DNA from: Owenia fusiformis
Lineage: Eukaryota
Reading direction: 5' to 3'
Assembly: GCA_903813345.2 (NCBI GenBank)
Contig: CAIIXF020000001.1
Coordinates: forward strand, 22,258,001 to 22,322,000
Length of the DNA: 64,000 nt
Numbering within the stretch: position 1 is the stretch's first letter; each line of letters opens with the position of its first letter. The position numbers and the translations under genes were made by a program. Positions 43,969 to 61,421 of the stretch are shown here, piece after piece. The notes beneath the pieces were generated by a model. That model had not been told where the DNA came from, made no database searches, and was given only the letters and a program-made list of their open reading frames with translations.

Positions 43969-44175
43969 TCACACAAAGTTCACTGTACTCAGGCTGAAGC
44001 CAAGCGATGACTGCAACACTGGAATCTGTCTAGTTGGTATTGGAGCAGACTTATCATTAGATTCTTCGTCTGTAGTGGTAATGCAAACACGAGTGCAAAT
44101 TACAAACATCAAACAAAGGAGTACAAACGATATGCTGCCCACAATCAAAGCGATGAAAAGAACATCCAGTTCCAT
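43969..44175 (-). CDS. LTR-encoded 68-aa single-pass membrane micropeptide (3' LTR copy)
   Basis: ATG-initiated and on the element's sense strand. Hydrophobic run VLFIALIVGSISFVLLCLMFVIC, juxtamembrane CTRVC and a polar tail; lies just upstream of the poly(A) signal. Confidence 0.55.
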   Translation of the reverse strand: MELDVLFIALIVGSISFVLLCLMFVICTRVCITTTDEESNDKSAPIPTRQIPVLQSSLGFSLSTVNFV

Positions 44176-44199
44176 ACAAGGACCAGTATCTTGTCTCGT

Positions 44200-46222
44200 G
44201 CAGGTAGCCTCCTCGTGCTAAGTCTAGTGAATCGTCTTCTCCCTCAAGTAGCCTCCTCCGGCTAAGTCTAGTGGATCCTCTTCTCCCTCAGGTAGCCTGC
44301 TCCGGCTAAGTCCAAAAGATCCTCTTCTCCCTCAGGTAGCCTCCTCCGGCTAAGTCCAATGGATCACCTTCCTCAGGAAGTCCGTTCGACAAAGTCGCTA
44401 AAATAAAGACCCAGCCTCAGTGAGTCCGTTCGACAAAGTCAACTGGAACGTCTTCTCCCTCAGGTAGCCTCTTCAGCTAAGTCCAATGGATCCTCTTCTC
44501 CCTCAGGTAGCCTCTTCAGCTAAGTCCAGTGGATCCTCTTCTCCCTCAGGTAGCCTCTTCAGCTAAGTCCAGTGGATCCTCTTCTCCCTCAGGTAGCCTC
44601 CTCTGGGTAAGTCCAATGGATCACCTTCCTCAGGAAGTCCGTTCGACAAAGTCGCTAAAATAAAGACCCAGCCTCAGTGAGTCCGTTCGACAAAGTCAAC
44701 TGGAACGTCTTCTCCCTCAGGTAGCCTCTTCAGCTAAGTCCAATGGATCCTCTTCTCCCTCAGGTAGCCTCTGGCTAAGTCCAATGGATCCTCTTCTCCC
44801 TCAGGTAGCCTCTGGCTAAGTCCAATGGATCCTCTTCTCCCTCAGGTAGCCTCTTCAGCTAAGTCCAGTGGATCCTCTTCTCCCTCAGGTAGCCTCCTCT
44901 GGGTAAGTCCAATGGATCACCTTCCTCAGGAAGTCCGTTCGACAAAGTCGCTAAAATAAAGACCCAGCCTCAGTGAGTCCGTTCGACAAAGTCAACTGGA
45001 ACGTCTTCTCCCTCAGGTAGCCTCTTCAGCTAAGTCCAATGGATCCTCTTCTCCCTCAGGTAGCCTCTTCAGCTAAGTCCAGTGGATCCTCTTCTCCCTC
45101 AGGTAGCCTCTTCAGCTAAGTCCAGTGGATCCTCTTCTCCCTCAGGTAGCCTCCTCTGGGTAAGTCAAATGGATCACCTTCCTCAGGAAGTCCGTTCGAC
45201 AAAGTCGCTAAAATAAAGACCCAGCCTCAGTGAGTCCGTTCGACAAAGTCAACTGGAACGTCTTCTCCCTCAGGTAGCCTCTTCAGCTAAGTCCAATGGA
45301 TCCTCTTCTCCCTCAGGTAGCCTCTGGCTAAGTCCAATGGATCCTCTTCTCCCTCAGGTAGCCTCTGGCTAAGTCCAATGGATCCTCTTCAGCTAAGTCC
45401 AGTGGATCCTCTTCTCCCTCAGGTAGCCTCCTCTGGGTAAGTCCAATGGATCACCTTCCTCAGGAAGTCCGTTCGACAAAGTCGCTAAAATAAAGACCCA
45501 GCCTCAGTGAGTCCGTTCGACAAAGTCAACTGGAACGTCTTCTCCCTCAGGTAGCCTCTTCAGCTAAGTCCAATGGATCCTCTTCTCCCTCAGGTAGCCT
45601 CTTCAGCTAAGTCCAGTGGATCCTCTTCTCCCTCAGGTAGCCTCTTCAGCTAAGTCCAGTGGATCCTCTTCTCCCTCAGGTAGCCTCCTCTGGGTAAGTC
45701 AAATGGATCACCTTCCTCAGGAAGTCCGTTCGACAAAGTCGCTAAAATAAAGACCCAGCCTCAGTGAGTCCGTTCGACAAAGTCAACTGGAACGTCTTCT
45801 CCCTCAGGTAGCCTCTTCAGCTAAGTCCAGTGGATCCTCTTCTCCCTCAGGTAGCCTCCTCTGGGTAAGTCCAATGGATCACCTTCCTCAGGAAGTCCGT
45901 TCGACAGTCGCTAAAATAAAGACCCAGCCTCAGTGAGTCCGTTCGACAAAGTCAACTGGAACGTCTCCCTCAGGTAGCCTCTTCCGGTGAAGTCCAATGG
46001 ATCCTCTTCTCCCTCAGGTAGCCTCCTCCGGCTAAGTCCAATGGATCCTCTTCTCCCTCAGGTAGCCTCTTCAGCTAAGTCCAGTGGATCCTCTTCTCCC
46101 TCAGATAGGCTCCTCCAGCTAAGTCCAATGGATCACCTTCCTCAGGAAGTCCGTTCGACAGTCGCTGAAATAAAGACCCAGCCTCAGTGAGTCCGTTCGA
46201 CAAAGTCAACTGGAACGTCTTC
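44200..46222. repeat. Hierarchical tandem array 1 in 3' LTR (43-bp units punctuated by 8 copies of a ~90-bp block)
   Basis: 43-bp period at 44488/44531/44574; block starts at 44361, 44618, 44914, 45171, 45448, 45705, 45876, 46130. Confidence 0.95.
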
Positions 46223-46249
46223 AGTGAGGAAGTTTCACAATAAATTATC

Positions 46250-47120
46250 TAAGTCAAACTTCAAATAGAACAAAGTCGAAGAATATTTCAAAGTGTGAGT
46301 AAGAAATATTCTAAGTCCAAGTTAGTATAAACGACTAAAATGTATAAGTCCAACTCCAGGTAGATGTACCACAGAACAAAGTCAAAGAATATTTCGAAGT
46401 GCCAGTAAGAAATGTTCTAAGTCCAAGTTAGCATCCACAGCAAAATATACAAGTCCAACTTCAGGTAGATGTATCACAGAACAAAGTCAAAGAATATTAA
46501 AAATGATTAAAATATTCTAAGTCCAAGTTAGCATCCACAGCAAAATATACAAGTCCAACTTCAGGTAGATGTATCACAGAACAAAGTCAAAGAATATTAA
46601 AAATGATTAAAATATTCTAAGTCCAAGTTATCATCTACAGCAAAATATACAAGTCCAACTCCAGGTAGATGTATCACAGAACAAAGTCAAAGAATATTGA
46701 AAATGATTAAAATATTCTAAGTCCAAGTTAGCATCCACAGCAAAATATACAAGTCCAACTTCAGGTAGATGTATCACAGAACAAAGTCAAAGAATATTGA
46801 AAATGATTAAAATATTCTAAGTCCAAGTTAGCATCCACAGCAAAATGTACAAGTCCAACTTCAGGTAGATGTATCACAGAACAAAGTCAAAGAATATTGA
46901 AAATGATTAAAATATTCTAAGTCCAAGTTATCATCTACAGAAAAATGTACAAGTCCAACTAAATTGACTTTGCCAAAGTTTAACCTCAAGTAGATTCGTC
47001 TACAGCCAGGTACATGTGAACAGAACAAAGTCAAAGAATATTAAAAATTGATTAAAATATTCTAAGTCCAAGTTATCATGTACAGAAAATGTCAAAGTCC
47101 AACAAAGTCAAAGTTGTCAA
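46250..47120. repeat. Tandem array 2 in 3' LTR (100-bp unit, ~8 copies)
   Basis: TTCTAAGTCCAAG at 46415, 46515, 46615, 46715, 46815 and 46915, plus degenerate flanking copies. Confidence 0.95.
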
Positions 47121-47912
47121 AATTTACAAAATATCACGAGCGGAGCTCTGTACCAGTCAAAAGCTAAATCAAGTCTCTCTCGAGTGTCAACTTTCTCAGC
47201 TTATATACTCTAGGAGGTTGCCCGGATGACGTACTCGCGCAATACAAAATATTGGCGCAAACTGATTAACCAAATGTTTAAATTACGATTACGGGCCTAC
47301 AGACGTGAAAATAACTCACAAATATGGTTGGTAATTGCGAGTTAATTATACAGATAAGAAATATAATGATAAAGTGTGGAAATACATTCACAATAGGTGG
47401 CTAGAGCAAGTTATTTAATGGAACAGGAAATAAAATGACCGCCGAAATGGCAGACGAGATTGAATTGACATTTCAAATTCACGACCAAATATCTTGAAAA
47501 CTAAACATTATTGCTACCCCTAATTTACAGAAATGATCGCTAATATTGTTATCTATCTAAATAAATCTAAATTAATAATTCAAATGGACTAACTAACCTG
47601 TATTTTTGCGATAAGTACGGAGCTTGAATATTCGAAGTTGTGGCTTAGTGAAGTAACTCTAAATGAGCACTACTAATGAAACGAAAAATACTACATTGAA
47701 ATAATGAGACAGAAAACGAAACTACCTCACTAAAAATAATGAACGCTAGCCGCCTAATTAAATATTGCAATGGGCCACAAATAAATATAATTATCACCAA
47801 AGGACCAGGTAAAATAAGGGAACAAGTGAAGTTGTTGTATTTAATGGCCATAATCTTGAGACTATCCAAATGGAAAACTATAATAATTTTTCAAAAAAAA
47901 TATTTTGTTACA

Positions 47913-47927
47913 CTCCTCCCTTCTTTT
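47913..47927 (-). other. Polypurine tract
   Basis: Minus-strand AAAAGAAGGGAGGAG directly abuts the 3' LTR. Confidence 0.9.
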
Positions 47928-48783
47928 GTTTTTGGTGTTTTCAACACCAAGCATAATTTCTCTTGAACTAACAATATATTTTTTTAAGAAAAATAAACTG
48001 TATTAAACTATAAAAACTTTCTTATCAAAAATAGTTACATTATAAAAATAACTACATTACATCTTACGAAAATATGTTATTTTGATGGCACTACTACTAA
48101 AGATAATTTTACTTTCTCTCATTGGTTATAACCAGGAGTTTTCTATCTCTAGTTTCAAGTGATTACATGCCTATAAACTACATCTCTAGTTACTTGACTT
48201 ATAATAAACTACCAAAACACAAAGTGTGTCCGGTCATAAACATTTACTATCTCTTGTTTCAAGTAACAGCATGACTTATACACTCAAAACATAAAAAGTT
48301 ATGACATGCAACAAAAATGTACCATCTCAAGTTTCAAATGATTACATGATTCATAAACTAGTCTCTAGCGACATGATTTGTAATAAACTACCAATATACA
48401 AAGTGTGTCATGCAATATACAAAAAATAAATGTCTTCACTCATGCACAACCACATTACAATTTCTAAGTCATCATGTGAACTATCTTATTTTAATGCCAG
48501 AACTACTAAACTGTCTTCATACTCTGTCGTTACCATATGTGAGATAAGTATTACAAAAATAAATTCACCCATCACTAATCACCAGGTACTTAAATTACTC
48601 GCCATAAAATCAAGATATAAGCTCATTGTCATACAAAATAATTGTAAACAGCTCATGTACGAAGCAAAATAATTATCTCTCCATTAAAAACTGATCATCT
48701 TTTCTAAGTCCTAATAACAGTCTCTTATAATATCTGGTTATATTTTCTAAGTCCTCATAATAGTCTCTATCACACTAGAATCT

Positions 48784-50169
48784 TTATATTTTGAGATCGC
48801 TATATCGACTTACCAATGTCTCATCTTCTATCACTGAACCGTCCCTGGCAAAATACCTAAAACGGATCTCCATTTTGATAGGGTTACGGATTGTCCCCCT
48901 TTGGTAGTCCTCATATTCATCGGTTTCCTCATCCTGTAAACGTTGTAACTCCACCCTGGGTTGTTGGTTCAACTTTACATCTTCCTCATCCGAGCTATCT
49001 ACCACATATTTCTTGCTCTTTGGCGCTTTTCGAACTCTTTTGTTATGTGGCTTTGATGACGCCCCCTCAACTACTACTGTCCGACTATCCATTTTTTCAA
49101 CCTCTTCTATTTCACTCTCCACTTTATTGTCCTGACCAGACTTGTCCTTGACTACTCTTTTACCCTGTTTAGAGGTTGTCTTTGCCTTCTCTTCGTAGGT
49201 TTTCTTGATGTCATGATCGGTTGGTTTTACTGTCCCATCGCTGACTCTCTTACTGTCTTTATCTGTGGGTTTCTTTGTGTCATTAGTAGTTTTCTTAATG
49301 TTTTTATCAGTGGTGTTCTTGTCTTTTTCAGTGGTTTTCTTAGGATCAGTGGTTTGCTTTATGTCTTTATCAGTTTTCTTAGTGTCTTTTTCAGTGGTTT
49401 TCTTAGGATCTTTGTCGGTGATTTGCTTTATGTCTTTATCAGTTTTCTTAGTGTCCTTATCGGTTGGTCTCTTCATGTCATCGCTCTTTTCGTTATTGTT
49501 ACTGTCTATCGCTATTTTCTCTGGTGATTTCTCTTTCACGCTTGGTTCTTTCTTACTATCCAATATCTTACCCCACACTGATAAAACTCCCTCTACCCTC
49601 TTGGTTTTGTCAGCAGGTTCTTCCCCGGTTGAAAGGCATGGTACGGGTTTATCAACGGTAGGTGGTACTGACACTGTCATGGGAGAGTTCTTTTCAGGGG
49701 GCGCTCCCAAGCTTGCTGAAGGTGGATAGGTTGTGGTGCAAGGCGTCTGTAAACCTTGCAGTAGTCCTGAAATCTGTCGCATAATTTGTATCCCCTCTGG
49801 ACTTTGCAGACTTGCGACTTGTTCTTCCTGACTAAATGCCTTACTAGAGGACAGGGAGGACCTCTCCCACCTGGCGAATTTATCTACTCTGTTATAGTCC
49901 CTGCTGGAAGCTCCGTCCCTATCATGGTCCCTCTTTTGATCCTGATCTCTATTACGATAGTCTCTTTCTGTTTCTCTATGATCTGTCCCTCTGTCGTTCT
50001 CTCTCCGGTTGGAAGCTCTGCCCCTATCATGGTCCCTACTTTGACCCTGGTCTCTATTGCGATAGTCTCTGTCTGTCTCTCTACTACGGGAGCGATCCCT
50101 TCGGTCTTGGGACCCATATCTGTCATCCCGGCCTCCATAGTCCCTACGCCCGTGTCCTCTGTGAGACAT
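48784..50169 (-). CDS. Putative spliced accessory ORF3 (461 aa, disordered, not Env), in frame with integrase
   Basis: Acceptor CTCTTTTTGTATTTCCAG| (AG 50184-83) lies 13 nt before ATG 50169, right after the integrase-terminal-like RVRKPPKRFADY motif. Confidence 0.55.
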   Translation of the reverse strand: MSHRGHGRRDYGGRDDRYGSQDRRDRSRSRETDRDYRNRDQGQSRDHDRGRASNRRENDRGTDHRETERDYRNRDQDQKRDHDRDGASSRDYNRVDKFARWERSSLSSSKAFSQEEQVASLQSPEGIQIMRQISGLLQGLQTPCTTTYPPSASLGAPPEKNSPMTVSVPPTVDKPVPCLSTGEEPADKTKRVEGVLSVWGKILDSKKEPSVKEKSPEKIAIDSNNNEKSDDMKRPTDKDTKKTDKDIKQITDKDPKKTTEKDTKKTDKDIKQTTDPKKTTEKDKNTTDKNIKKTTNDTKKPTDKDSKRVSDGTVKPTDHDIKKTYEEKAKTTSKQGKRVVKDKSGQDNKVESEIEEVEKMDSRTVVVEGASSKPHNKRVRKAPKSKKYVVDSSDEEDVKLNQQPRVELQRLQDEETDEYEDYQRGTIRNPIKMEIRFRYFARDGSVIEDETLVSRYSDLKI

Positions 50170-53100
50170 TCTTTCTTGGTACCTGGAAATACAAAAAGAG
50201 GTCTCTAAGTCATAGTCCGCAAAGCGTTTTGGGGGTTTACGAACTCGCTTACCAACACAGTTCTTAACTTTATCAGACACATTATTATCTGACTTTGGCT
50301 TATCACACGCAGTAGGCTCCCAAAAATCTGTGTCCATCTGGCCATCAGGATCTTCCTTCTTCGACACTTCCTTGGCTTCAAAGTCCGAAGGTTCAGTATT
50401 CTTCTTGGATGCCCTTTTGTCAGTCGCCTCGTTCTTCAGTTCTTCAGATTTGTAGTCCTCATTCTTCAACTCCGGCTCGGTCTCCTCATTCTTCAGTTCT
50501 TCAGACTTGTAGTCCAATGGATCGGTGTGTATCTCCACCATCTTAGGTTCGGTATCCTCATTCTTCAGTTCTTCAGATTTGTAGTCCTCATTCTTCAACT
50601 CCGGCTCGGTCTCCTCATTCTGCACTTCTTCAGATTTGCAGTCCTCATTCTTCAACTCCGGCTGGTTAGGTTTGAAATCAAATGGGTCTGCTGCTAGCTC
50701 GGACATCTTTGGAATGGTCCCTTCTTGTGGTATAGTCCAACCGTCTGGAAGGCAACTCTCGTAAGGCTTCATCTGATCGAAATGTACCACCCTAGGCTTG
50801 ATCTTTCCCCACTCACGGATACGATACGTCACATCTGACATCTTTTGGAGGACCTGAAATGGACCAATCCATTTACATTGTAATTTAGGAGACACCCCTT
50901 TCTTCTTAGTGTTGTTTTTTAACCACACAGCTTCCCCTATAGTGTATCCCTTCCCTGAAACCCGCCGATCATAAGCATCTCGTTGCCGTTGATTGGCTTT
51001 CTTCAACACTTGGCTGGCGCGCTCATGTGCATCTCTTAAGCCTTGTCTAAGTTCAATCACGTAATCCGTCTTAGTTTCTTCTGATACAGGGTTTTCCACT
51101 ATCCAGGATACTGGCACAGCCAACTCCCTTCCGAACATCATCATTGCTGGTGTCTCCCCTGTCGCCTCGTGAGTGGATGTGCGATAGGCCAGCAATGCAT
51201 AAGGAATCTTTACATCCCAGTCGTATTGATGAACATCAGGCTGTAACAGTTTAGCAATAGTATCCAATAGAGTCCGATTGTACCTCTCCACCATCCCGTT
51301 GCTCTGCGGATGGAAGGGTGTAGTACGGGTCTTGTGAATCCCCATCAATTCACAGATTTCTTGAAATACATGAGACTCAAAATTTCTGCCTTGATCTGAG
51401 TGCAGTTCTGCTGGGGCTCCAAATCTGCAAACAACCTCGTTTACCAACTTATCAGCTACAGTTGTGGCTTCTTGATTAGGGAGAGGGTAGGCTTCAACCC
51501 ACTTCGAGAAGTAGTTGGCACACACCATTATCACCTTATTCCCTCTTGGTGTCTCGGGGAATGGTCCCAAAATATCCACAGCATAACGCTCCATAGGAGA
51601 ACTAACTCCTTGGACCTGCATGGGAGCTCTTCTAGCCTTCAAGGGTTTTCTTCTGGTTCCACAGGTGTGGCAAGAGCGCACAACTCCTCTAACATCGACT
51701 CTCTGCTCAAACCAATAGAATCTCTGTCGGCTCTTCAGGAAGGTGCGACGGACACCAAAATGTCCGGCAACCTTGTTAGAGTGGCTCATCTCTAGAACAA
51801 TCGCCTTCATTGGAGATGGAACTAGTATCTGTAGATGACCATGCTCCCCACTGGCATCCTCCCATCTGTTGCAAAGTACATTGTTGTTGATCTCAAGTTG
51901 ATTCCAAAGGTGCCAATAATGCTTTGTAGCGGGCGAATTGTAACTGATCTTATCCCAAGTTGGTCTGATTGAAGAAGTTCGCAGAGCCTCTAATATAGGC
52001 TGTATCTCAGGATCTTGTCCTTGTGCCTCCGCAATTTTCTCCAAAGTCCAAGTTGGTTCAACAGAGACCACAGAGATTGCTACCTGAAGCACATCTTCCT
52101 GTTCCACCTCATCACAATGTGAACACTGGTGACAGGGCCGTCTGGACATAACATCAGCGTTCGCATGTTTTGGTCCTGGGCGATATTCCAGTTGGTAGTT
52201 ATACTCCTGTAGTACCTCCAGCCATCGAGCTAGTTGTCCCTCTGGATTCCTGAAGTTAGTTAACCACCTCAATGATCCATGGTCTGAACGAATGGTAAAT
52301 CTGACCCCATACAAGTATTGGCGAAAATACTTGACAAAAAATACCACAGCTAAAAGTTCCTTGCGAGTCACGCAGTAATTCAACTCTGGTCCATTCAACC
52401 GATGACTTGCATAGTATATCACCCGCTCTTCATTGTCTTGAATCTGGGATAACACAGCACCCAAAGCTTCATGACTGGCATCCGTGTCTAAAATATAGGG
52501 ACAATCATCTCTGGGAAAAGATAAGATAGGTGCTGTAGTTAACATCTCCTTCAAAGCAACAAAGGCCTCCTCTGCTTCAGGATTCCACATAAATCTCTGA
52601 TTCTTTCGTGTCAACTTGTGTAAAGGACCGGCTATTTCGGCAAAGTTTTTGATATGCCTTCTGTAGTAAGAAGCCCCTCCTACAAATTGTCGGACATGTT
52701 TTACTGTCCTTGGAGTAGGGTACTGCACCATAGCTGCTATCTTCTCCGGGTCTGGTGCAATGCCATCACCAGAAACAACATGGCCGAGGAAGTTCACTTT
52801 AGTCTGGAACAGGGTACACTTGCTAGGTTTCATCTTCAATCCAGCTCGGCGAAGACAACCAAATACCCTTTCTAAGCGACCAATCGCTTGTTCAAACGTG
52901 GGGGCGAATGAAATCACATCGTCCAAATAAACCAGAGAACCATCATCTTTCAAACCACTAAGAACTTCTTCCATCAGGCGACAAAATGTCGAAGGTGCAT
53001 TCGATAAGCCAAATGGCATCACAGTCCATTGGTAAAGTCCACCTCTTACTGTGAACGCTGACTTCTCTTGAGCGTCTTTATCCAATAAGACCTGCCAATA

Positions 53101-53352
53101 CCCACTTGCAAGATCCAGTGTGCTGAAATACTTCGATCCATTCAGCATATCCAAGGTTTCATCGATTCTAGGAATTGGGAAAGCGTCTTTCTTCGTAACA
53201 CTATTAAGTTTTCGGTAATCGACGCAGAATCTCCATGAGCCGTCTTTCTTTCTTACAAGTACTATGGGTGACGCCCACGGACTCTGGGAGGGCTCGATTA
53301 TACCTCGCTTCATCATGTCTTCAATAAGATCAGTCACAGTATCCTGACGACT
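48784..53352 (-). CDS. pol: Pol: RT, RNase H, integrase (GPY/F) and long low-complexity extension; in frame with gag-PR across one TGA
   Basis: SPWASP, RFCVDYRKLN, MPFGL, YLDD, DTDAS, HANAD, H-H-C-C zinc finger, VDILGP/HSDQG/NGMVER, WIGPF. Confidence 0.95.
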   Translation of the reverse strand, partial: SRQDTVTDLIEDMMKRGIIEPSQSPWASPIVLVRKKDGSWRFCVDYRKLNSVTKKDAFPIPRIDETLDMLNGSKYFSTLDLASGYWQVLLDKDAQEKSAFTVRGGLYQWTVMPFGLSNAPSTFCRLMEEVLSGLKDDGSLVYLDDVISFAPTFEQAIGRLERVFGCLRRAGLKMKPSKCTLFQTKVNFLGHVVSGDGIAPDPEKIAAMVQYPTPRTVKHVRQFVGGASYYRRHIKNFAEIAGPLHKLTRKNQRFMWNPEAEEAFVALKEMLTTAPILSFPRDDCPYILDTDASHEALGAVLSQIQDNEERVIYYASHRLNGPELNYCVTRKELLAVVFFVKYFRQYLYGVRFTIRSDHGSLRWLTNFRNPEGQLARWLEVLQEYNYQLEYRPGPKHANADVMSRRPCHQCSHCDEVEQEDVLQVAISVVSVEPTWTLEKIAEAQGQDPEIQPILEALRTSSIRPTWDKISYNSPATKHYWHLWNQLEINNNVLCNRWEDASGEHGHLQILVPSPMKAIVLEMSHSNKVAGHFGVRRTFLKSRQRFYWFEQRVDVRGVVRSCHTCGTRRKPLKARRAPMQVQGVSSPMERYAVDILGPFPETPRGNKVIMVCANYFSKWVEAYPLPNQEATTVADKLVNEVVCRFGAPAELHSDQGRNFESHVFQEICELMGIHKTRTTPFHPQSNGMVERYNRTLLDTIAKLLQPDVHQYDWDVKIPYALLAYRTSTHEATGETPAMMMFGRELAVPVSWIVENPVSEETKTDYVIELRQGLRDAHERASQVLKKANQRQRDAYDRRVSGKGYTIGEAVWLKNNTKKKGVSPKLQCKWIGPFQVLQKMSDVTYRIREWGKIKPRVVHFDQMKPYESCLPDGWTIPQEGTIPKMSELAADPFDFKPNQPELKNEDCKSEEVQNEETEPELKNEDYKSEELKNEDTEPKMVEIHTDPLDYKSEELKNEETEPELKNEDYKSEELKNEATDKRASKKNTEPSDFEAKEVSKKEDPDGQMDTDFWEPTACDKPKSDNNVSDKVKNCVGKRVRKPPKRFADYDLETSFCISRYQERMSHRGHGRRDYGGRDDRYGSQDRRDRSRSRETDRDYRNRDQGQSRDHDRGRASNRRENDRGTDHRETERDYRNRDQDQKRDHDRDGASSRDYNRVDKFARWERSSLSSSKAFSQEEQVASLQSPEGIQIMRQISGLLQGLQTPCTTTYPPSASLGAPPEKNSPMTVSVPPTVDKPVPCLSTGEEPADKTKRVEGVLSVWGKILDSKKEPSVKEKSPEKIAIDSNNNEKSDDMKRPTDKDTKKTDKDIKQITDKDPKKTTEKDTKKTDKDIKQTTDPKKTTEKDKNTTDKNIKKTTNDTKKPTDKDSKRVSDGTVKPTDHDIKKTYEEKAKTTSKQGKRVVKDKSGQDNKVESEIEEVEKMDSRTVVVEGASSKPHNKRVRKAPKSKKYVVDSSDEEDVKLNQQPRVELQRLQDEETDEYEDYQRGTIRNPIKMEIRFRYFARDGSVIEDETLVSRYSDLKI

Positions 53353-56300
53353 TCAGGGTAACATGCGATATCTTTGCTTTATTGGTGGAGTATTCCCGGT
53401 GTCTATGCTGTGCTCTACTAGAGTTGTCTTACCCAAGTCACCATCTCTTTGGGCAAAAATATCTTGATTCCTCACAAGTAGTGATTGAAGTTGATCACTC
53501 TGATTCTGTGTAAGTCCACATGAACTTCTTTCAAATAAGGCCTGCATAAAATCTGGCAATGGTATAAGTCCTTCTTCAGCTCCCTCTGAAGTTGAAAGTG
53601 GGCAAACGACCTCTTGTTTAACTTTTTCCAAATTCACATGGTAGGTCTCATCATCCACCAAAGTGAAGACTCCCAAAGTTTCTCCTTGGAGGACGGATAC
53701 TTCGAAGTCGTTATTGTTCCGCACTTCTATATAGCTGACCTGATTAGCATCAGCTAATATGGTTACCACTTCAAGTTCATCCATCTGGGTATCAGATAAG
53801 TGGGGTTCAATAATGCCCACCCCCACTAGTGGTTCCCTCAACCGAACCTCGATACATCTACCAGAGTAAGGAGGTATGACCACTTCATCCTCAGAGCAGT
53901 TGTAACAAAATGTAGATTGTTGTTGAGCACACATCTGTCTCAAATCGGGAAATACATCATCTTCCAAGTCCAAACTCTCTTGAGACCCATGTGGCGTTTC
54001 TGGAATAACGATAGGTTCCGCTGGGGGACTGTCAGGAAACTGTACCTCTGGTTCAGGCGACGGAGTTTCAGGTACAAATAGTTCCCAGGCATCCTCAAAA
54101 ACTTGAGAATCTTCTGATTCCTCTGTGTCTTCCTCGACTACAGACAGGGGACTATCAGGAATTTCTATCTTGACTCTAGGTGAAGGTGTCTCAGGTCTAG
54201 GTTCTACCATTCTCTTCACTTGTGTTGAACTTGGTCCAGCTTCAGCTGATTCTTTTAAACTCTTTGTAGTCCTGGGCTTGGATCCAACAACCTCCAATGC
54301 TGAGCCGCTACTACTACTTTCATTTCTTGATAACTTAGTACTGCAGCTACAGAAGTGATCAGATTCGTCTGACTCAGGTCCCTCAGGATCATCAAGTTGA
54401 TCTTCTGCTGCACCAGAGTTATCTTGTGCCCCAAAACTAAGTCGACAGCGATGGTAATCTACTATAGCTCCAGATGCGGACAAATAGTCGCTTCCCAAAA
54501 TTCCATCAAAGTCTATGTTGGCTACAGCAATCTCCATCTCTTCGGTATGTCCATCTATATTAACAGTACCAAGGATAACTCCCATCATGGCCAGTGGTTC
54601 CCCATCTGCTTGGACCATAACATGGTTTGGAGGTAACAACTTTGGGCGATATCGAGGGTTCATCCTACGATAAACTTCACCACTCACAATGGTACGCACT
54701 GCTCCAGAATCTAACAAAAAGATCACATCAGTGCCACAGACATCGCCATGAGCTATAACCTTCCGAACATCCTTAGGGGATTTGTTCTTGGTAACATCTC
54801 TCCCTGAATGAGACAGGAATTTCACCGGGGCAGTCTGATTCGATCCAGCTTGGGCCTCTCTGGCTCTCTCTTCATTTCGTTTCCTCGAATAACAGTCGGC
54901 CATCACGTGTCCTGATTTGTGACAGTAGAAACACTCAACTTTTCTATTTCGGTTTCCTCTCGATTCGAACCCAGGCTTCTTTTGTTGTTCCAATAACTCC
55001 ACCATTTTCTCTAAGTTCTTGCTGCATTCCACTTGTACGCTTTTCTGGATATTCTCTATCAGTTGGGTAATCTGCTTGAACTCACTCTCTTTTTCTTCCA
55101 ACGCACTTATTCTACCGTATTTTGGCTTTTGTCCTTTTCTAATCCGTTCAGACTCTAAGTAGGACTCTTCCTTCAGAGCGATTTCTATTGCCTTATCCAG
55201 AGTGGTACATTCTTTTGCGTGGATTGCTCTGCGTATGTCCTCTTCTACTATAGCTTGTTCAAAGCTGCGTCTGGCAAGGCGGTCTTGAGATGATCTGCTC
55301 ATTTCAGGGTAGGCCAATGCCGTAAGCCGTCGGATGTCTTGACCCAAGGTTTGAAGTGATTCTTTGGGCTTCCTCATTCGACCAACAAGTTCCGCCTCGT
55401 AGATTTCTGCTTTGCCACCAGGCCCGAACCTCTTCTCCAAGGCCAGGATCAACTGCTCATAGGTGTATCCCTCTTCCAACTCTAACACAATCTGCTGTGC
55501 TGGACCTCGCAGACTTGTGGCCAGGTACTGGTTCTTCTCCTCCGAAGTCCATCTATTGGCTTTACAGCAAATCTCGAAGTAAGCGCGATACTCTTGCCAT
55601 GGAGTTGTACCATTAAAAGTGTCAGGCTTAATTCGGCTCTTGGATTTGGGCCTGTCATCTTGGGACAACTTATCACAGAAGTTGTTGAACATCTTGAGGA
55701 AATCTGTAGAAACACCAGGTATATTAGTATCATCTTTCGAAATCTTCGGTTCAGGGGAATCAAAACCCGAGAATTTATTATCTTCTTCAAATCTAGTTCT
55801 TATATCAGAATATGGTGCCGTATGATCACTGCTTCTAGGTGGATGTCCATCCCTTTCTCTTTGGCTCTTAAACTCGTTAGCGTCCCAGCCTCCAGGAAGA
55901 TACACTTCATCAGGTTTATTAAACAGTATAGTGGGATCTCTGTGGTCTGTTTGGTGTTTAGTTGGCACATAGACTCTGTCTTGTCTTTGTAAAGACCATG
56001 GTCGCTTCCTTTGAGGAGGAAAGGACTCTGGAATATCCTCATCTTCTAAATCTTGTTTTTGACTCATTGGCATCGTAGGTGATTTGAACGGTTGCCTCTG
56101 AGATTTTCCTGCAGAATCTGGCCTAGGGTTCTCATCAAACTCTGAAGGACAACCAACATCTTCGTAGTTTCGTGACCTCGAAACGACTTCTTGCTGAACT
56201 GGAGGAATGGTCAAAGTAGAGTGCAACTTGTCAATAGACTCACCAATAGTCTTCTGGAAAGATTCCATGTAATGTTGCATCTCTTGTAAGCGGCGATCTT

Positions 56301-56931
56301 GTATTCCCGCAATCTCTTGTAGTCGCCTCTCATGCTTTTGCTCACTGCCTTGTTGAATATTCTTGGTCTCCGCAAGGTGTTCCACTATTTGGGACATGCT
56401 ACTGGTCTGTATCTGCTGAGTTGTTGTTATGGCATTCAACTGTTTCTGTTGTGTATCCGCAATGTCACCTAACACAGACATCTTCCCTTTGAGCTGTCCC
56501 TCAATCATAGTTAGTTCTTGTCTAATCTCTTCGGCTGCTTGAACTTTGTCTGAGGGCCGATTAATGATAGTTGATGTCAATGGGAAACGTGGTCTTGGGG
56601 GAGGATTCCTTCTATCTCGAATCATGGGATGTGCCGGAGTTCCCATATTATCTAAGTCTCCTCCTGTCCAGTAGCCTGTACTTTGTATGCCAGGAAAAAT
56701 GCTCATTTCAGAATCCACCTTCGAATCTTTAGCTCTGGCGCCTACACCAAGTTGATCCTCTGGTTGATCAGACAATGGTTCTCCATCTTGTTGCACAGGT
56801 AAAGTTTCATCTTCAGCTCCAGGATTTTCCACTTCAGCTGACTCTGGTTTCAGGAACACTGTCTTCTCCATGTCAGACTCGTCTCCATCTCTTGGATAAG
56901 GAAGACCTGCCTCTAGTTCCATCTTGTCCAT
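53353..56931 (-). CDS. gag: Gag-protease polyprotein (1192 aa)
   Basis: Capsid KPDTFNGTTPWQEY...W...LATSLRGPA, knuckle CFYCHKSGHVMADC, protease FLLDSGA...GILGSDYL, then an acidic linker and a possibly dUTPase-like degenerate segment. Confidence 0.95.
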   Translation of the reverse strand: MDKMELEAGLPYPRDGDESDMEKTVFLKPESAEVENPGAEDETLPVQQDGEPLSDQPEDQLGVGARAKDSKVDSEMSIFPGIQSTGYWTGGDLDNMGTPAHPMIRDRRNPPPRPRFPLTSTIINRPSDKVQAAEEIRQELTMIEGQLKGKMSVLGDIADTQQKQLNAITTTQQIQTSSMSQIVEHLAETKNIQQGSEQKHERRLQEIAGIQDRRLQEMQHYMESFQKTIGESIDKLHSTLTIPPVQQEVVSRSRNYEDVGCPSEFDENPRPDSAGKSQRQPFKSPTMPMSQKQDLEDEDIPESFPPQRKRPWSLQRQDRVYVPTKHQTDHRDPTILFNKPDEVYLPGGWDANEFKSQRERDGHPPRSSDHTAPYSDIRTRFEEDNKFSGFDSPEPKISKDDTNIPGVSTDFLKMFNNFCDKLSQDDRPKSKSRIKPDTFNGTTPWQEYRAYFEICCKANRWTSEEKNQYLATSLRGPAQQIVLELEEGYTYEQLILALEKRFGPGGKAEIYEAELVGRMRKPKESLQTLGQDIRRLTALAYPEMSRSSQDRLARRSFEQAIVEEDIRRAIHAKECTTLDKAIEIALKEESYLESERIRKGQKPKYGRISALEEKESEFKQITQLIENIQKSVQVECSKNLEKMVELLEQQKKPGFESRGNRNRKVECFYCHKSGHVMADCYSRKRNEERAREAQAGSNQTAPVKFLSHSGRDVTKNKSPKDVRKVIAHGDVCGTDVIFLLDSGAVRTIVSGEVYRRMNPRYRPKLLPPNHVMVQADGEPLAMMGVILGTVNIDGHTEEMEIAVANIDFDGILGSDYLSASGAIVDYHRCRLSFGAQDNSGAAEDQLDDPEGPESDESDHFCSCSTKLSRNESSSSGSALEVVGSKPRTTKSLKESAEAGPSSTQVKRMVEPRPETPSPRVKIEIPDSPLSVVEEDTEESEDSQVFEDAWELFVPETPSPEPEVQFPDSPPAEPIVIPETPHGSQESLDLEDDVFPDLRQMCAQQQSTFCYNCSEDEVVIPPYSGRCIEVRLREPLVGVGIIEPHLSDTQMDELEVVTILADANQVSYIEVRNNNDFEVSVLQGETLGVFTLVDDETYHVNLEKVKQEVVCPLSTSEGAEEGLIPLPDFMQALFERSSCGLTQNQSDQLQSLLVRNQDIFAQRDGDLGKTTLVEHSIDTGNTPPIKQRYRMLP

Positions 56932-56973
56932 CTTGTAAGTTCTCTAGTTCTGGCTCGTCTTTGGAAACAATTC

Positions 56974-56992
56974 AATCCCACCGCTGCCACCA
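56974..56992 (-). other. Primer-binding site, tRNA-Leu
   Basis: Plus-strand AATCCCACCGCTGCCACCA matches the 3' end (with CCA) of animal tRNA-Leu AAG/TAG as I recall it; 1 nt from the 5' LTR. Confidence 0.85.
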
Positions 56993-57289
56993 GTGTAACA
57001 GTTAGGCCTTTTTGTGGATATTTTGGTAGTGTGGACTAATAGGCCTCTGTATACCTTGTGGGTTACGTGACACACGTTAAATGTGTTTGCACCAAAGATT
57101 CAACAGAACTTTTAATTATATTTATTACACAACAAACGATATATTGTGGCGTCTGTAGGCCCAAAATTGTGTACATCAAATAGCAAAATGTCCTTATAAT
57201 AAACTGGAATAGAACCAATGTTCGTTGTTGTTGTTATTATTCACTGTAAGTCCAAACATATAAGCATCAATTGTGGGATTGGATTGAAG

Positions 57290-57496
57290 TCACACAAAGT
57301 TCACTGTACTCAGGCTGAAGCCAAGCGATGACTGCAACACTGGAATCTGTCTAGTTGGTATTGGAGCAGACTTATCATTAGATTCTTCGTCTGTAGTGGT
57401 AATGCAAACACGAGTGCAAATTACAAACATCAAACAAAGGAGTACAAACGATATGCTGCCCACAATCAAAGCGATGAAAAGAACATCCAGTTCCAT
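57290..57496 (-). CDS. LTR-encoded 68-aa membrane micropeptide (5' LTR copy)
   Basis: Translation identical to 43969-44175. Confidence 0.55.
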   Translation of the reverse strand: MELDVLFIALIVGSISFVLLCLMFVICTRVCITTTDEESNDKSAPIPTRQIPVLQSSLGFSLSTVNFV

Positions 57497-60400
57497 ACAA
57501 GGACCAGTATCTTGTCTCGTGCAGGTAGCCTCCTCGTGCTAAGTCTAGTGAATCGTCTTCTCCCTCAAGTAGCCTCCTCCGGCTAAGTCTAGTGGATCCT
57601 CTTCTCCCTCAGGTAGCCTGCTCCGGCTAAGTCCAAAAGATCCTCTTCTCCCTCAGGTAGCCTCCTCCGGCTAAGTCCAATGGATCACCTTCCTCAGGAA
57701 GTCCGTTCGACAAAGTCGCTAAAATAAAGACCCAGCCTCAGTGAGTCCGTTCGACAAAGTCAACTGGAACGTCTTCTCCCTCAGGTAGCCTCTTCAGCTA
57801 AGTCCAATGGATCCTCTTCTCCCTCAGGTAGCCTCTTCAGCTAAGTCCAGTGGATCCTCTTCTCCCTCAGGTAGCCTCTTCAGCTAAGTCCAGTGGATCC
57901 TCTTCTCCCTCAGGTAGCCTCCTCTGGGTAAGTCCAATGGATCACCTTCCTCAGGAAGTCCGTTCGACAAAGTCGCTAAAATAAAGACCCAGCCTCAGTG
58001 AGTCCGTTCGACAAAGTCAACTGGAACGTCTTCTCCCTCAGGTAGCCTTTTCAGCTAAGTCCAATGGATCCTCTTCTCCCTCAGGTAGCCTCTGGCTAAG
58101 TCCAATGGATCCTCTTCTCCCTCAGGTAGCCTCTGGCTAAGTCCAATGGATCCTCTTCTCCCTCAGGTAGCCTCTTCAGCTAAGTCCAGTGGATCCTCTT
58201 CTCCCTCAGGTAGCCTCCTCTGGGTAAGTCCAATGGATCACCTTCCTCAGGAAGTCCGTTCGACAAAGTCGCTAAAATAAAGACCCAGCCTCAGTGAGTC
58301 CGTTCGACAAAGTCAACTGGAACGTCTTCTCCCTCAGGTAGCCTCTTCAGCTAAGTCCAATGGATCCTCTTCTCCCTCAGGTAGCCTCTTCAGCTAAGTC
58401 CAGTGGATCCTCTTCTCCCTCAGGTAGCCTCTTCAGCTAAGTCCAGTGGATCCTCTTCTCCCTCAGGTAGCCTCCTCTGGGTAAGTCAAATGGATCACCT
58501 TCCTCAGGAAGTCCGTTCGACAAAGTCGCTAAAATAAAGACCCAGCCTCAGTGAGTCCGTTCGACAAAGTCAACTGGAACGTCTTCTCCCTCAGGTAGCC
58601 TCTTCAGCTAAGTCCAATGGATCCTCTTCTCCCTCAGGTAGCCTCTGGCTAAGTCCAATGGATCCTCTTCTCCCTCAGGTAGCCTCTGGCTAAGTCCAAT
58701 GGATCCTCTTCAGCTAAGTCCAGTGGATCCTCTTCTCCCTCAGGTAGCCTCCTCTGGGTAAGTCCAATGGATCACCTTCCTCAGGAAGTCCGTTCGACAA
58801 AGTCGCTAAAATAAAGACCCAGCCTCAGTGAGTCCGTTCGACAAAGTCAACTGGAACGTCTTCTCCCTCAGGTAGCCTCTTCAGCTAAGTCCAATGGATC
58901 CTCTTCTCCCTCAGGTAGCCTCTTCAGCTAAGTCCAGTGGATCCTCTTCTCCCTCAGGTAGCCTCTTCAGCTAAGTCCAGTGGATCCTCTTCTCCCTCAG
59001 GTAGCCTCCTCTGGGTAAGTCAAATGGATCACCTTCCTCAGGAAGTCCGTTCGACAAAGTCGCTAAAATAAAGACCCAGCCTCAGTGAGTCCGTTCGACA
59101 AAGTCAACTGGAACGTCTTCTCCCTCAGGTAGCCTCTTCAGCTAAGTCCAGTGGATCCTCTTCTCCCTCAGGTAGCCTCCTCTGGGTAAGTCCAATGGAT
59201 CACCTTCCTCAGGAAGTCCGTTCGACAGTCGCTAAAATAAAGACCCAGCCTCAGTGAGTCCGTTCGACAAAGTCAACTGGAACGTCTCCCTCAGGTAGCC
59301 TCTTCCGGTGAAGTCCAATGGATCCTCTTCTCCCTCAGGTAGCCTCCTCCGGCTAAGTCCAATGGATCCTCTTCTCCCTCAGGTAGCCTCTTCAGCTAAG
59401 TCCAGTGGATCCTCTTCTCCCTCAGATAGGCTCCTCCAGCTAAGTCCAATGGATCACCTTCCTCAGGAAGTCCGTTCGACAGTCGCTGAAATAAAGACCC
59501 AGCCTCAGTGAGTCCGTTCGACAAAGTCAACTGGAACGTCTTCAGTGAGGAAGTTTCACAATAAATTATCTAAGTCAAACTTCAAATAGAACAAAGTCGA
59601 AGAATATTTCAAAGTGTGAGTAAGAAATATTCTAAGTCCAAGTTAGTATAAACGACTAAAATGTATAAGTCCAACTCCAGGTAGATGTACCACAGAACAA
59701 AGTCAAAGAATATTTCGAAGTGCCAGTAAGAAATGTTCTAAGTCCAAGTTAGCATCCACAGCAAAATATACAAGTCCAACTTCAGGTAGATGTATCACAG
59801 AACAAAGTCAAAGAATATTAAAAATGATTAAAATATTCTAAGTCCAAGTTAGCATCCACAGCAAAATATACAAGTCCAACTTCAGGTAGATGTATCACAG
59901 AACAAAGTCAAAGAATATTAAAAATGATTAAAATATTCTAAGTCCAAGTTATCATCTACAGCAAAATATACAAGTCCAACTCCAGGTAGATGTATCACAG
60001 AACAAAGTCAAAGAATATTGAAAATGATTAAAATATTCTAAGTCCAAGTTAGCATCCACAGCAAAATATACAAGTCCAACTTCAGGTAGATGTATCACAG
60101 AACAAAGTCAAAGAATATTGAAAATGATTAAAATATTCTAAGTCCAAGTTAGCATCCACAGCAAAATGTACAAGTCCAACTTCAGGTAGATGTATCACAG
60201 AACAAAGTCAAAGAATATTGAAAATGATTAAAATATTCTAAGTCCAAGTTATCATCTACAGAAAAATGTACAAGTCCAACTAAATTGACTTTGCCAAAGT
60301 TTAACCTCAAGTAGATTCGTCTACAGCCAGGTACATGTGAACAGAACAAAGTCAAAGAATATTAAAAATTGATTAAAATATTCTAAGTCCAAGTTATCAT

Positions 60401-60521
60401 GTACAGAAAATGTCAAAGTCCAACAAAGTCAAAGTTGTCAAAATTTACAAAATATCACGAGCGGAGCTCTGTACCAGTCAAAAGCTAAATCAAGTCTCTC
60501 TCGAGTGTCAACTTTCTCAGC

Positions 60522-60576
60522 TTATATACTCTAGGAGGTTGCCCGGATGACGTACTCGCGCAATACAAAATATTGG
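60522..60576 (-). promoter_or_regulatory. Candidate LTR core promoter: TATATAA with upstream CRE-like TGACGTA and CCAAT (also 47201-47255)
   Basis: Minus-strand GTATATAAG ~700 bp into the LTR, just upstream of array 2. Confidence 0.6.
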
Positions 60577-61421
60577 CGCAAACTGATTAACCAAATGTTT
60601 AAATTACGATTACGGGCCTACAGACGTGAAAATAACTCACAAATATGGTTGGTAATTGCGAGTTAATTATACAGATAAGAAATATAATGATAAAGTGTGG
60701 AAATACATTCACAATAGGTGGCTAGAGCAAGTTATTTAATGGAACAGGAAATAAAATGACCGCCGAAATGGCAGACGAGATTGAATTGACATTTCAAATT
60801 CACGACCAAATATCTTGAAAACTAAACATTATTGCTACCCCTAATTTACAGAAATGATCGCTAATATTGTTATCTATCTAAATAAATCTAAATTAATAAT
60901 TCAAATGGACTAACTAACCTGTATTTTTGCGATAAGTACGGAGCTTGAATATTCGAAGTTGTGGCTTAGTGAAGTAACTCTAAATGAGCACTACTAATGA
61001 AACGAAAAATACTACATTGAAATAATGAGACAGAAAACGAAACTACCTCACTAAAAATAATGAACGCTAGCCACCTAATTAAATATTGCAATGGGCCACA
61101 AATAAATATAATTATCACCAAAGGACCAGGTAAAATAAGGGAACAAGTGAAGTTGTTGTATTTAATGGCCATAATCTTGAGACTATCCAAATGGAAAACT
61201 ATAATAATTTTTCAAAAAAAATATTTTGTTACAATATGTATCGGCTTTAAATGTTTTTATTCTCCAACGTCACACAGGACTAAAAACACTCCTGAAACAC
61301 AGGAATACAAGATTTGTTTAACATCGAATGCCTTTTTATAGCAAACATTCAAAAATTGTAATCTTAATTCCCACTCTGATTCTGTAGATTACTGTAGGTC
61401 AAACTCATGTTTATACAATTA

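Follow-up and report, generated by a model that had tools for sequence, protein, structure and literature searches.

A recently inserted Ty3/Gypsy retrotransposon whose LTRs are swollen to 4.2 kb by two tandem arrays, with a candidate short R region at the LTR end

The analysed window, a stretch of 64,000 nucleotides, harbours a full-length Ty3/Gypsy LTR retrotransposon on its minus strand at 43673..61233 (17,561 bp, of which 9,081 bp are internal region); all features of the element described below are read on the minus strand. The 5′ LTR (56994..61233) and the 3′ LTR (43673..47912), each of 4,240 bp, are identical at 4,238 positions, with two substitutions (at 44728 and 47752 in left-copy coordinates) and no indels, and every LTR feature given here for the 5′ LTR recurs in the 3′ LTR at its coordinate minus 13,321. 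The LTR termini are TGTAAC...GTTACA (that is, TG..CA ends), and both element ends are flanked by the 4-bp target-site duplication (TSD) ATAT (43669..43672 and 61234-61237). A TGG-starting primer-binding site (PBS) adjoins the 5′ LTR, reading CTGGTGGCAGCGGTGGGATTGA from 56993 downward or, 1 nt past the LTR end, TGGTGGCAGCGGTGGGATTGA at 56972..56992; no tRNA gene was found in the window. The polypurine tract (PPT) AAAGAAGGGAGGAG (47926-47913) adjoins the 3′ LTR. The combination of LTR pair, TSD, PBS and PPT is far beyond chance, which does not hold for the single small motifs.

ORF1 (53353..56931; 1,192 aa) starts at the gag ATG at 56931 and terminates at a single in-frame stop; it comprises a long N-terminal extension, a capsid-like region, a putative CCHC knuckle, an aspartic protease and a linker. 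ORF2 (48784..53316; 1,510 aa), in the same frame, encodes reverse transcriptase (RT), RNase H and integrase (IN). The pol domains were matched by Pfam in the order RVT_1 (3.5e-35), RT_RNaseH (2.8e-32), Integrase_H2C2 (3.8e-14) and rve (8.9e-13), along with Integrase_p58_C and with protease-type matches at ORF1 residues 730-818 (sub-threshold, E 8e-5). The gag matches were all sub-threshold (PNMA, 1.8e-3; Ty3_capsid, 0.024; zf-CCHC, 0.23), and a CX2CX4HX4C motif is readable in gag. No database relative was found for the first 500 aa of gag, nor any family or database match for the low-complexity, K/E/D/R-rich C-terminal tail of ~650 aa in ORF2, and the closest pol matches are animal Gypsy polyproteins with at most 56% identity over RT-IN. 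The pol domain order, the paired TG..CA LTRs with TSD, the PBS and the PPT thus identify the element as Ty3/Gypsy. Furthermore, a contig from run X1 carries the empty site, in which the sequence on the left of the 3′ LTR runs straight into that on the right of the 5′ LTR. With two differences in 4,240 LTR positions the insertion is very recent, and its site is still polymorphic.

The LTRs are swollen to 4.2 kb by two tandem arrays. Each LTR begins with a unique AT-rich head (60444..61233; 33% GC), followed by a 100-bp tandem array of about 8-9 units (59544..60433), for which TRF reports a core at 59588-60281 (6.8 copies, 93% matches) that degenerate units widen to about 59544-60433. Next comes a purine-rich higher-order array (57497..59543; 52% GC) of 8 units of 169-296 bp, reported by TRF with a period of 257 (7.9 copies, 57554-59540) and with a period of 43 (22.6 copies); by dissection, each unit pairs a ~87-bp spacer with 2-5 monomers of 41-44 bp. 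The landmarks listed by the initial annotation, namely TATA box, 100-bp array, 43-bp array, 68-codon ORF and AATAAA, were all recovered at their coordinates and in this order.

No similarity between the two arrays was detected by blastn. Both, though unrelated-looking, share the exact 10-mer TTGGACTTAG, which occurs 8 times in the 100-bp array and 13 times in the 257-bp array, and GGACTT is found 53 times in sense (16 in the 100-bp array and 36 in the 257-bp array) and never in antisense. Each 100-bp unit carries two TGGACTT motifs and one ATG that starts a 5-codon uORF, while the 2,047-bp higher-order array holds 0 ATGs in sense and 19 in antisense. The sharing of one strand-specific 10-mer points to a selected, identifiable binding motif: the arrays are probably cis-acting modules amplified around a common strand-specific TGGACTT core, and may act as reiterated binding sites, either at the DNA level in an enhancer- or insulator-like manner, or at the RNA level in the 3′-UTR.

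Two TATA-type boxes were annotated on the LTR sense strand. The upstream candidate promoter, the consensus TATA box TATATAAG at 60521..60528, is preceded at about 25 nt by a CRE-like TACGTCA and closely followed by GAGAGAG; TATATAAG is present 6 times in the window, counting both strands, and 2 of these copies fall in the LTRs. The candidate proximal promoter, TATAAG at 57193..57198 (predicted start at about 57173-57167), is a motif that is frequent in this AT-rich DNA, with 53 occurrences on both strands of the window. Downstream of the latter lies a poly(A) module (57065..57126) consisting of AATAAA (57126-21), ATTAAA (57116-11), CA (about 57089-57084) and a GT-rich stretch (57076-65). This AATAAA is the sole one on the LTR sense strand, and neither AATAAA nor ATTAAA was found between the upstream TATATAAG and 57126. 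The poly(A) region proposed earlier (57126-57090, or 43805-43770 in the 3′ LTR) looks genuine.

A further feature of the LTR tail is an ATG-free stretch of 242 nt (56932..57173) that follows the last preceding ATG (57176-57174) and ends at the gag ATG, and that is proposed to span R, U5, PBS and leader. Shuffling the 565-nt region 5,000 times gave an ATG-free run of 242 nt in 42 cases, and only 12 of the 1,984 ATG-to-ATG gaps (0.6%) on both strands of window positions 1-43000 are at least 242 nt long. Were transcription to start at the upstream TATA box, gag would stand behind 15 ATGs, including those of ORFs of 68, 46, 37, 22 and 21 codons; the 8 ATGs in the first 3 kb after that box all open uORFs of 5-9 codons.

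RNA reads from three runs were placed on the element (119 from X13, 103 from X14 and 69 from X15), mostly derived from variant copies, and region depths were computed as means of first-mate-on-plus depth. Mean depth was 0.26-0.36 over gag, 0.42-0.91 over the 100-bp array with the upstream TATA region (60616-59533) and 1.8-5.2 over the 43/257-bp array; depth over the 100-bp array was not above that of the U3 head or gag, and was raised only over the 43/257-bp array and the tail. RNA over the arrays was strongly sense-biased (for example, 8.51 versus 0.56 in X13). The family is thus transcribed in sense at a low level. Around the predicted upstream start, ~30 nt past the TATA box at 60528, depth was 0-1.5, and no pile-ups of read starts or ends were seen in the three runs, where depth is at most about 9. 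Canonical splice joints were likewise absent from the RNA reads in the LTR, the sole joint being a non-canonical 168-bp skip carried by 3 reads. The letters borne by most RNA reads are those of a sister LTR variant that is commoner, and the word depth in X1 (254-295 for the LTR tail versus 59-86 for the head) suggests that this variant has the tail in common more than the head. The arrays' RNA depth of 6-20 times that of gag is not predicted by a simple single-transcript model; the excess is attributed to the sister variant, possibly also to 3′ bias.

R covers the stretch between the transcription start and the poly(A) site; the signal itself is usually found in R, 10-30 nt ahead of that site (PMC2664473). 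On balance, the gag-pol or replicative RNA probably starts at the proximal module within the final ~210 bp of the LTR, with the arrays in U3. TATAAG at 57198 would direct a start near 57170, and AATAAA at 57126 a cleavage near 57090, giving a predicted R of about 80 nt and U5 of about 95 nt. A U3 of ~4.06 kb would then contain the head, the two arrays and the 68-codon ORF, all of which would be present once per RNA, in its 3′ untranslated end only. In the 5′ LTR, the poly(A) signal would be about 45 nt from the cap and would for that reason be passed over, as happens in retroviruses that carry the signal in R. As far as the sequence by itself can tell, the tail has the canonical short-R layout (TATAAG, 57198; AATAAA, 57126; GT-rich element, 57076-65; LTR end, 56994), and the proximal start is supported by the 242-nt ATG-free run up to gag and by AATAAA, ATTAAA, CA and the GT-rich element at 45-105 nt downstream. 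Against it stands the upstream TATATAAG, which is closer to consensus than TATAAG and whose distance of about 700 nt from the LTR start is typical of a U3. The lack of poly(A) hexamers and the ATG-free 2,047-bp array would also fit a transcribed leader, but weakly, because the arrays are of low complexity.

A less likely possibility is an LTR with two promoters, in which the proximal module would again give the gag-pol/genomic RNA, and the upstream TATA box at 60528 would also fire, from 5′, 3′ or solo LTRs, to yield a capped, LTR-limited non-coding RNA of ~3.4 kb that carries both arrays and ends at its own poly(A) site. Such an RNA is consistent with the two sense-strand TATA-type boxes 3.3 kb apart, of which the upstream one is a perfect consensus accompanied by the CRE-like site, with the one poly(A) signal being at the far end, with all 8 ATGs of the first 3 kb opening only 5-9-codon uORFs and with the strong sense bias of array RNA; the BARE LTR, whose TATA1 and TATA2 serve separate RNA pools, provides a precedent (PMC3735527). 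However, depth at 60616-59533 is not above that of gag or the U3 head and is 4-10 times under that of the next array, and the reads come mostly from another LTR variant that, by X1 word depth, appears to have the tail more than the head. An active upstream promoter would make solo LTRs scattered sources of non-coding RNA.

The initial annotation had instead placed the start at about 60495, with an R of about 3.4 kb and the arrays and micro-ORF at both ends of the genomic RNA. With this as the sole start, gag would be translated behind a 3.6-kb leader via an internal ribosome entry site (IRES), splicing or reinitiation. This model is unlikely. The consensus TATA box, the 3.4 kb devoid of other poly(A) hexamers, the ATG-poor arrays and the sense-strand RNA over them speak for it, but the second TATA-like box, exactly behind which the 242-nt ATG-free run starts, would be left unexplained in this arrangement, and RNA depth is not raised over the 100-bp array, as opposed to the even depth expected along R (the reads being few and mostly from variant copies). 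The same evidence argues against arrays at both RNA ends. Nor does the leader look permissive for gag translation, given its 15 ATGs, ORFs of up to 68 codons and the lack of any canonical splice joint in the LTR reads. We know of no R of kilobase size, nor of any way to bypass a poly(A) signal that follows the cap at a distance of 3.4 kb.

Quite unlikely, too, is an extension of the two-promoter arrangement in which the LTR, also as a solo LTR, would give a polyadenylated non-coding RNA of ~3.4 kb whose arrays present 53 sense-only GGACU(U) motifs. It is just as doubtful that this RNA, or the arrays in the genomic 3′-UTR, would form a dense, reiterated docking platform for a factor that modifies or binds RNA, a role proposed because m6A writers prefer GGACU among DRACH contexts. 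If true, the factor could control stability, export, packaging or silencing of the element; to our knowledge, a cis-acting RNA module of this type, borne in an LTR, is undescribed for animal retrotransposons.

The 68-codon ATG ORF directly after the array (57290..57496) does contain one strongly hydrophobic segment, 19 aa with a mean Kyte-Doolittle value of 2.9, yet it bears no sign of being a gene and is probably fortuitous. That it encodes a real small single-pass membrane protein, an LTR accessory gene like MMTV sag or lentiviral nef, whose place is likewise in U3, is very unlikely. The position of its ATG, G at +4, the hydrophobic segment and a weak TMEM52 match in Pfam (E 5.7e-4; 20.3 bits versus a cut-off of 26.4) are in favour, as is the TMEM52 fragment that tops the Atlas matches (0.94), and ORFs in the U3 of long LTRs are known (PMC2664473). 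On the other side, T stands at -3, shuffling the 640-nt LTR tail 2,000 times gave an ORF of at least 68 aa in 149 cases, and an equally long hydrophobic ORF lies in the LTR head (61172-60966). The TMEM52 family is common to only 1 of the ten best family-bearing Atlas matches, and the tool itself grades this assignment as probably wrong; a phmmer search of 1.84 billion representatives returned a single match (E 1.6e-4), itself a translated tandem repeat and rejected as spurious, leaving no credible homologue from either search. Moreover, the letters in most RNA reads cause two non-synonymous codon changes (K42Q and I46V), and the 168-bp deletion variant in RNA reads removes codons 13-68. The ORF is thus of chance length, variable and devoid of relatives, and is probably a by-product of T-rich sequence.

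Mis-assembly of the long LTRs or arrays is extremely unlikely: tandem arrays do pose difficulties for assembly, and none of the public records examined spans the LTR on its own, but both LTR copies agree in every array unit with 2 substitutions and 0 indels, termini, TSD, PBS and PPT are exact, and contigs from the independent-looking run X1 match the array and head junction pieces 59514-59714, 60426-60659 and 60630-63 with 0 mismatches, the empty site and another flank being recovered as well.

In its PR-RT-RNaseH-IN order, gag with a CCHC-type motif, TG..CA LTRs, 4-bp TSD, PBS and PPT the element resembles other animal Ty3/Gypsy elements, from which it differs in its 4,240-bp LTRs, its length of 17.6 kb and a gag N-terminus and integrase tail without relatives. 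The 8 relatives with complete LTR pairs have LTRs of 173-345 bp and lengths of 4.2-6.3 kb, bearing out the view that, for an animal Gypsy element, the present LTRs are of exceptional length. Multi-kb LTRs are known from Woot of Tribolium, also an animal Gypsy element. Arrays of short reiterated protein-binding motifs are found in the Drosophila gypsy group (Su(Hw) sites in gypsy; repeats in ZAM and Idefix), although in gypsy the array occupies the internal 5′-UTR instead of the LTR. A mollusc survey describes LTRs as 'usually between 100 and 500 bp' and sets limits of 80-1,500 bp for LTRs and 2.5-11 kb for LTR spacing (PMC6238403). Given limits such as these, standard surveys would miss such elements, and the arrays would collapse in short-read assemblies.

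Among plant Gypsy elements, Ogre/Tat/Retand are likewise very large and carry family-specific tandem arrays, and Ogre has multi-kb LTRs. The arrays here differ from those of Retand/Ogre in lying inside the LTR and in an animal-type host, the nearest pol relatives bearing animal names. In Retand, about half of the recently active elements bear arrays, described as of unknown function, in the internal region between pol and the 3′ LTR, with LTRs of 315-1,194 bp (PMC11963269). BARE1, a barley Copia element and thus of another superfamily, also has two TATA boxes in one LTR, yielding RNA pools with differing fates from start sites about 340 nt apart (nt 1350-1412 versus 1686-1689; PMC3735527), whereas the boxes here, recognized by sequence only, are 3.3 kb apart with the arrays between them. 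MMTV sag and lentiviral nef likewise are ORFs inside an LTR, upstream of its promoter-proximal part; each occupies the 5′ third of its LTR (PMC2664473). They are conserved and far beyond chance length, unlike the 68-codon ORF. Finally, satellites and minisatellites are documented to arise when segments of LTRs are amplified in tandem, as with RPCS of Ctenomys, the MaLR minisatellites of mouse and PisTR-A of pea, which stems from Ogre (PMC6947457; PMC3648361), and the present LTR is a plausible seed of satellite DNA. As this element shows, animal Gypsy elements can bear plant-like, multi-kb, array-filled LTRs and yet be recently mobile.

The 4,240-bp interval to which the initial annotation had drawn attention is the 5′ long terminal repeat (LTR) of a full-length Ty3/Gypsy element, which spans 17,561 bp on the minus strand (43673-61233). 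Only one pair of direct repeats of that kind was found in the window, and its two copies of 4,240 bp each (the 3′ LTR at 43673-47912 and the 5′ LTR at 56994-61233), offset by 13,321 bp, differ at two positions and by no indels. The LTR termini read TGTAAC...GTTACA, and both outer ends are flanked by ATAT. In the sense (minus-strand) direction, a primer-binding site (PBS) starting with TGG lies next to and downstream of the right-hand repeat, and a purine tract (AAAGAAGGGAGGAG, read from the sequence) precedes the left-hand repeat on the same strand. The minus strand further encodes ORF1 (1,192 aa; CCHC knuckle and aspartic protease) and ORF2 (1,510 aa; RT, RNase H and the zinc-binding, core and C-terminal domains of integrase), which share one frame and are separated by one stop (53353-53355, minus) just before RT. 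The sole contig covering this site in run X1 (a contig run that is probably DNA, because one of its loose ends is a Nextera-type adaptor) does not agree with the window at that codon, thus the stop looks private to the otherwise pristine window copy. With the LTR and the internal region as blastn queries, no further copy of the element was detected in the window, and all 466 LTR HSPs fell within the two LTRs. No tRNA genes were found in the window.

Judged from protein sequence, the family appears new to the collections searched, since the closest database pol proteins reach up to 56% identity over RT-IN only and none of 5,002 gag candidates (recruited by words from the first 500 residues; 655-2,086 aa in length) was a homologue at E <= 0.001. 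Three stretches on the minus strand were without a family match, and relaxed Pfam searches gave nothing usable for any of them: a gag N-terminal extension of ~430 aa (55642-56931), a protease-RT linker of ~370 aa (53356-54474) and a post-integrase tail of ~650 aa (48787-50769), the last also without database coverage. Nor did relaxed Pfam bear out a dUTPase-like stretch that the linker had seemed to contain. The tail, with ELKNED repeats rich in K/E, a stretch rich in RD/RS and TDKD(I/T)KK repeats, may serve in targeting or be disordered.

Within the 5′ LTR, all the parts that had been claimed were found on the sense strand and in the claimed order: an upstream TATA (TATATAAG, 60528-60521), the 100-bp array (59588-60281 by TRF, with 6.8 copies and 93% matches; ~59544-60433 with degenerate units), the hierarchical array (57554-59540; TRF periods 43 and 257), a 68-codon ORF (57496-57290) that starts right behind the last array unit, AATAAA (57126-57121) and the LTR end (56994), followed by the gag ATG at 56931 (all minus). 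The hierarchical array resolves into eight higher-order units of 169-296 bp, each consisting of a ~87-bp spacer plus two to five monomers of 41-44 bp. The units of the 100-bp array (60400-59755, minus) carry one ATG each with a 5-codon frame ending in TAG, forming eight mini-uORFs in a row.

The two arrays differ in composition (the 100-bp array is AT-rich with 31% GC, the 257-bp array purine-rich with 52% GC), and no similarity between them was detected by blastn. TGGACTT is nevertheless a building core in both. On the sense strand GGACTT has 53 occurrences (none in the LTR head, 16 in the 100-bp array, 36 in the 257-bp array and one in the tail), whereas the antisense strand has none. Moreover, an exact 10-mer, TTGGACTTAG, is found eight times in the 100-bp array and 13 times in the 257-bp array, while by our estimate chance would give ~0.01 10-mers common, in the same orientation, to a 100-nt unit and the ~130 nt of unique sequence in the other unit; such sharing points to common ancestry of the arrays or to a selected motif. 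We infer that the arrays are putative reiterated binding sites, whose partner would read either DNA or RNA. GGACU is a favoured context for m6A. No Rfam match at gathering thresholds was found in 43000-62000.

Transcription was assessed in three paired RNA-seq runs that bear the same species label (X13, X14 and X15). About 6-12% of these runs yielded 119, 103 and 69 reads placed on the element, whose expression is low. The first mates lie nearly all on the plus strand, including those in gag, which under the usual stranded protocol corresponds to RNA of the element's sense strand. Expressed as means of binned first-mate-on-plus depths, coverage is 0.19-0.37 in two whole bins of the LTR head (60617-61158), 0.42-0.91 over the TATA region and the 100-bp array (59533-60616), 1.8-5.2 over the 43/257-bp array (57636-59532), 0.6-5.0 in the tail (56823-57635) and 0.26-0.36 in gag (53300-56822). 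RNA is thus not enriched in the kilobase directly past the upstream TATA. Among the rows listed for X13-X15 and X1, neither pile-ups of read starts or ends nor poly(A)-type loose ends were seen. From the reads and their depth pattern, the family is transcribed in the sense direction; they place no transcription start site (TSS) but argue against a dominant one at ~60495.

A second promoter-like module is present at the 3′ end of the LTR, where TATAAG (57198-57193, minus) is followed by AATAAA (57126), ATTAAA (57116), CA dinucleotides (~57089-57084) and a GT-rich stretch (57076-57065). The start predicted 25-31 nt past TATAAG falls at 57173-57167, right after the last ATG ahead of gag (57176-57174), and would leave 242 nt without any ATG up to the gag ATG; when the 565-nt region was shuffled 5,000 times, a terminal ATG-free run that long arose 42 times, and ATG-to-ATG gaps that long account for 12 of 1,984 in window 1-43000 (both strands). 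From this predicted start, R would be ~80 nt and U5 ~95 nt, and the poly(A) signal would fall inside R, an arrangement that PMC2664473 gives as the usual retroviral one. The likeliest layout, to which we give slightly better than even credence, is that a U3 of 4.06 kb comprising head, arrays and ORF would precede a canonical short R-U5.

That the LTR has two promoters, with the upstream consensus TATA additionally yielding an LTR-limited RNA, is possible at a clearly lower level of confidence: such an arrangement has a precedent in BARE (PMC3735527), yet abundant LTR-limited RNA predicts a rise in depth just past the upstream TATA, and none is there. The initial annotation had proposed that the upstream TATA drives a sole TSS at ~60495, giving an R of ~3.4 kb. 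This is unlikely, as a conventional proximal module is present, the RNA enrichment that such an R predicts in the kilobase after the TATA is missing, and 15 ATGs would precede gag, including those of ORFs of 68, 46, 37, 22 and 21 codons. The LTR is not a duplicated LTR module, since head and tail lack significant similarity (best HSP 14 nt), as do the two arrays.

The membrane micro-ORF of the initial annotation exists as a 68-codon hydrophobic ORF, but its status as a gene did not hold up. Shuffling the 640-nt tail 2,000 times gave an ORF of at least 68 aa in 149 cases, a second hydrophobic 68-codon ORF lies in the LTR head (61172-60966), and the T-rich sense strand favours hydrophobic codons. 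No credible homologue emerged: a TMEM52-type identity was rejected as the Pfam match was sub-threshold only, the one phmmer match among 1.84 billion representatives was spurious (a translated tandem repeat), and Atlas returned generic small single-pass membrane proteins and itself rates the family as probably wrong. The letters found in most RNA reads are non-synonymous at codons 42 and 46, and a 168-bp non-canonical skip (three reads, two starts) removes codons 13-68. The micro-ORF is therefore treated here as fortuitous, and we regard a real gene as very improbable.

The LTR divergence (K ~4.7e-4; two differences over 4,240 bp) corresponds, at neutral rates of 1e-9 to 1e-8 per site per year, to an insertion age of ~24,000-240,000 years. 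One X1 contig aligns rightwards from 61233 and is preceded by GTGGGGAAATCACAAAAACTAAG, the window sequence immediately left of the 3′ LTR; this is an empty target site, which makes the insertion hemizygous or polymorphic. In another X1 contig the same LTR end is joined to a different flank, thus at least one further insertion exists. Seven X13 reads cross the LTR end (56994) into sequence other than this element's PBS, and are read-through from solo or 3′ LTRs elsewhere. Furthermore, reads of X13 and X15 (three each) and one X1 contig share the LTR end and PBS and then diverge at 56972, which indicates a related element with another leader, either a sister or a non-autonomous one, having the same LTR tail and PBS.

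As a rough guide only, X1 word depth is 254-295 in the unique tail, 59-86 in the unique head (the tail being ~4 times the head) and 35-92 in the internal region. Two-thirds of the RNA reads are merely 95-99% identical to the window. At 57110, 57113, 57361, 57371 and 57373, most or all X13 reads carry non-window letters, as do the only X1 contig there and a varying share of the reads of X14 and X15. We read these data as a commoner sister LTR variant that has the 43/257-bp array and tail, mostly not this head, and is the source of most of the RNA signal.

A SOCS-box open frame (E 2.9e-6; 41915-42559, plus) ends ~1.1 kb from the 3′ LTR, and the insertion is just downstream of a probable host gene exon. 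Elsewhere in the window, an open frame of 780 aa (9727-12069, minus) contains RVT_1 and zf-RVT and represents a non-LTR (LINE-type) retrotransposon. Two tandem repeats are unrelated to the element, one with a 590-bp unit (23410-24889; three copies, 87-97% identity) and one with a ~340-360-bp unit (25581-26492; three copies), and dispersed repeat pairs occur at 3953-4687/28032-28791 and 20516-20811/29596-29891.

The locus thus holds a genuine giant Gypsy element, both young and polymorphic, in which arrays have inflated the LTRs to an unusual length. For size comparison, 80 metagenome loci encoding pol relatives (34-59% identity in the best segment) were examined, in 33 of which direct repeats form a pair separated by 2 kb or more. 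Eight pairs bracket the pol match and are wholly contained in the contig (L004, L043, L047, L051, L061, L070, L076 and L079), with LTRs of 173-345 bp and elements of 4.2-6.3 kb, figures drawn from distant relatives and from short-read assemblies, in which array-filled LTRs are beyond recovery. The remaining pairs either run into a contig end, which sets lower bounds of up to 729 bp, or represent terminal overlaps (39-668 bp); the 2.1-3.6 kb repeats in L063, L066 and L072 were rejected as long LTRs, because gag/pol ORFs lie within them, which marks them as tandem or wrap-around copies. In a survey of mollusc LTR elements, LTRs are described as 'usually between 100 and 500 bp long', and its search bounds (LTRs of 80-1,500 bp, spacing of 2.5-11 kb) would therefore miss an element like this one (PMC6238403). 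What is novel here is the LTR architecture, seen within an animal Gypsy family, together with the common strand-specific core motif; the kind of element itself is not new. Tandem arrays in or beside LTRs, and satellites derived from them, are documented, mostly in plants, with some cases in mammals (PMC6947457, PMC3648361 and PMC11963269); in Retand, as one of these describes it (PMC11963269), the arrays are internal and the LTRs measure 315-1,194 bp, whereas here the arrays lie within the LTR.
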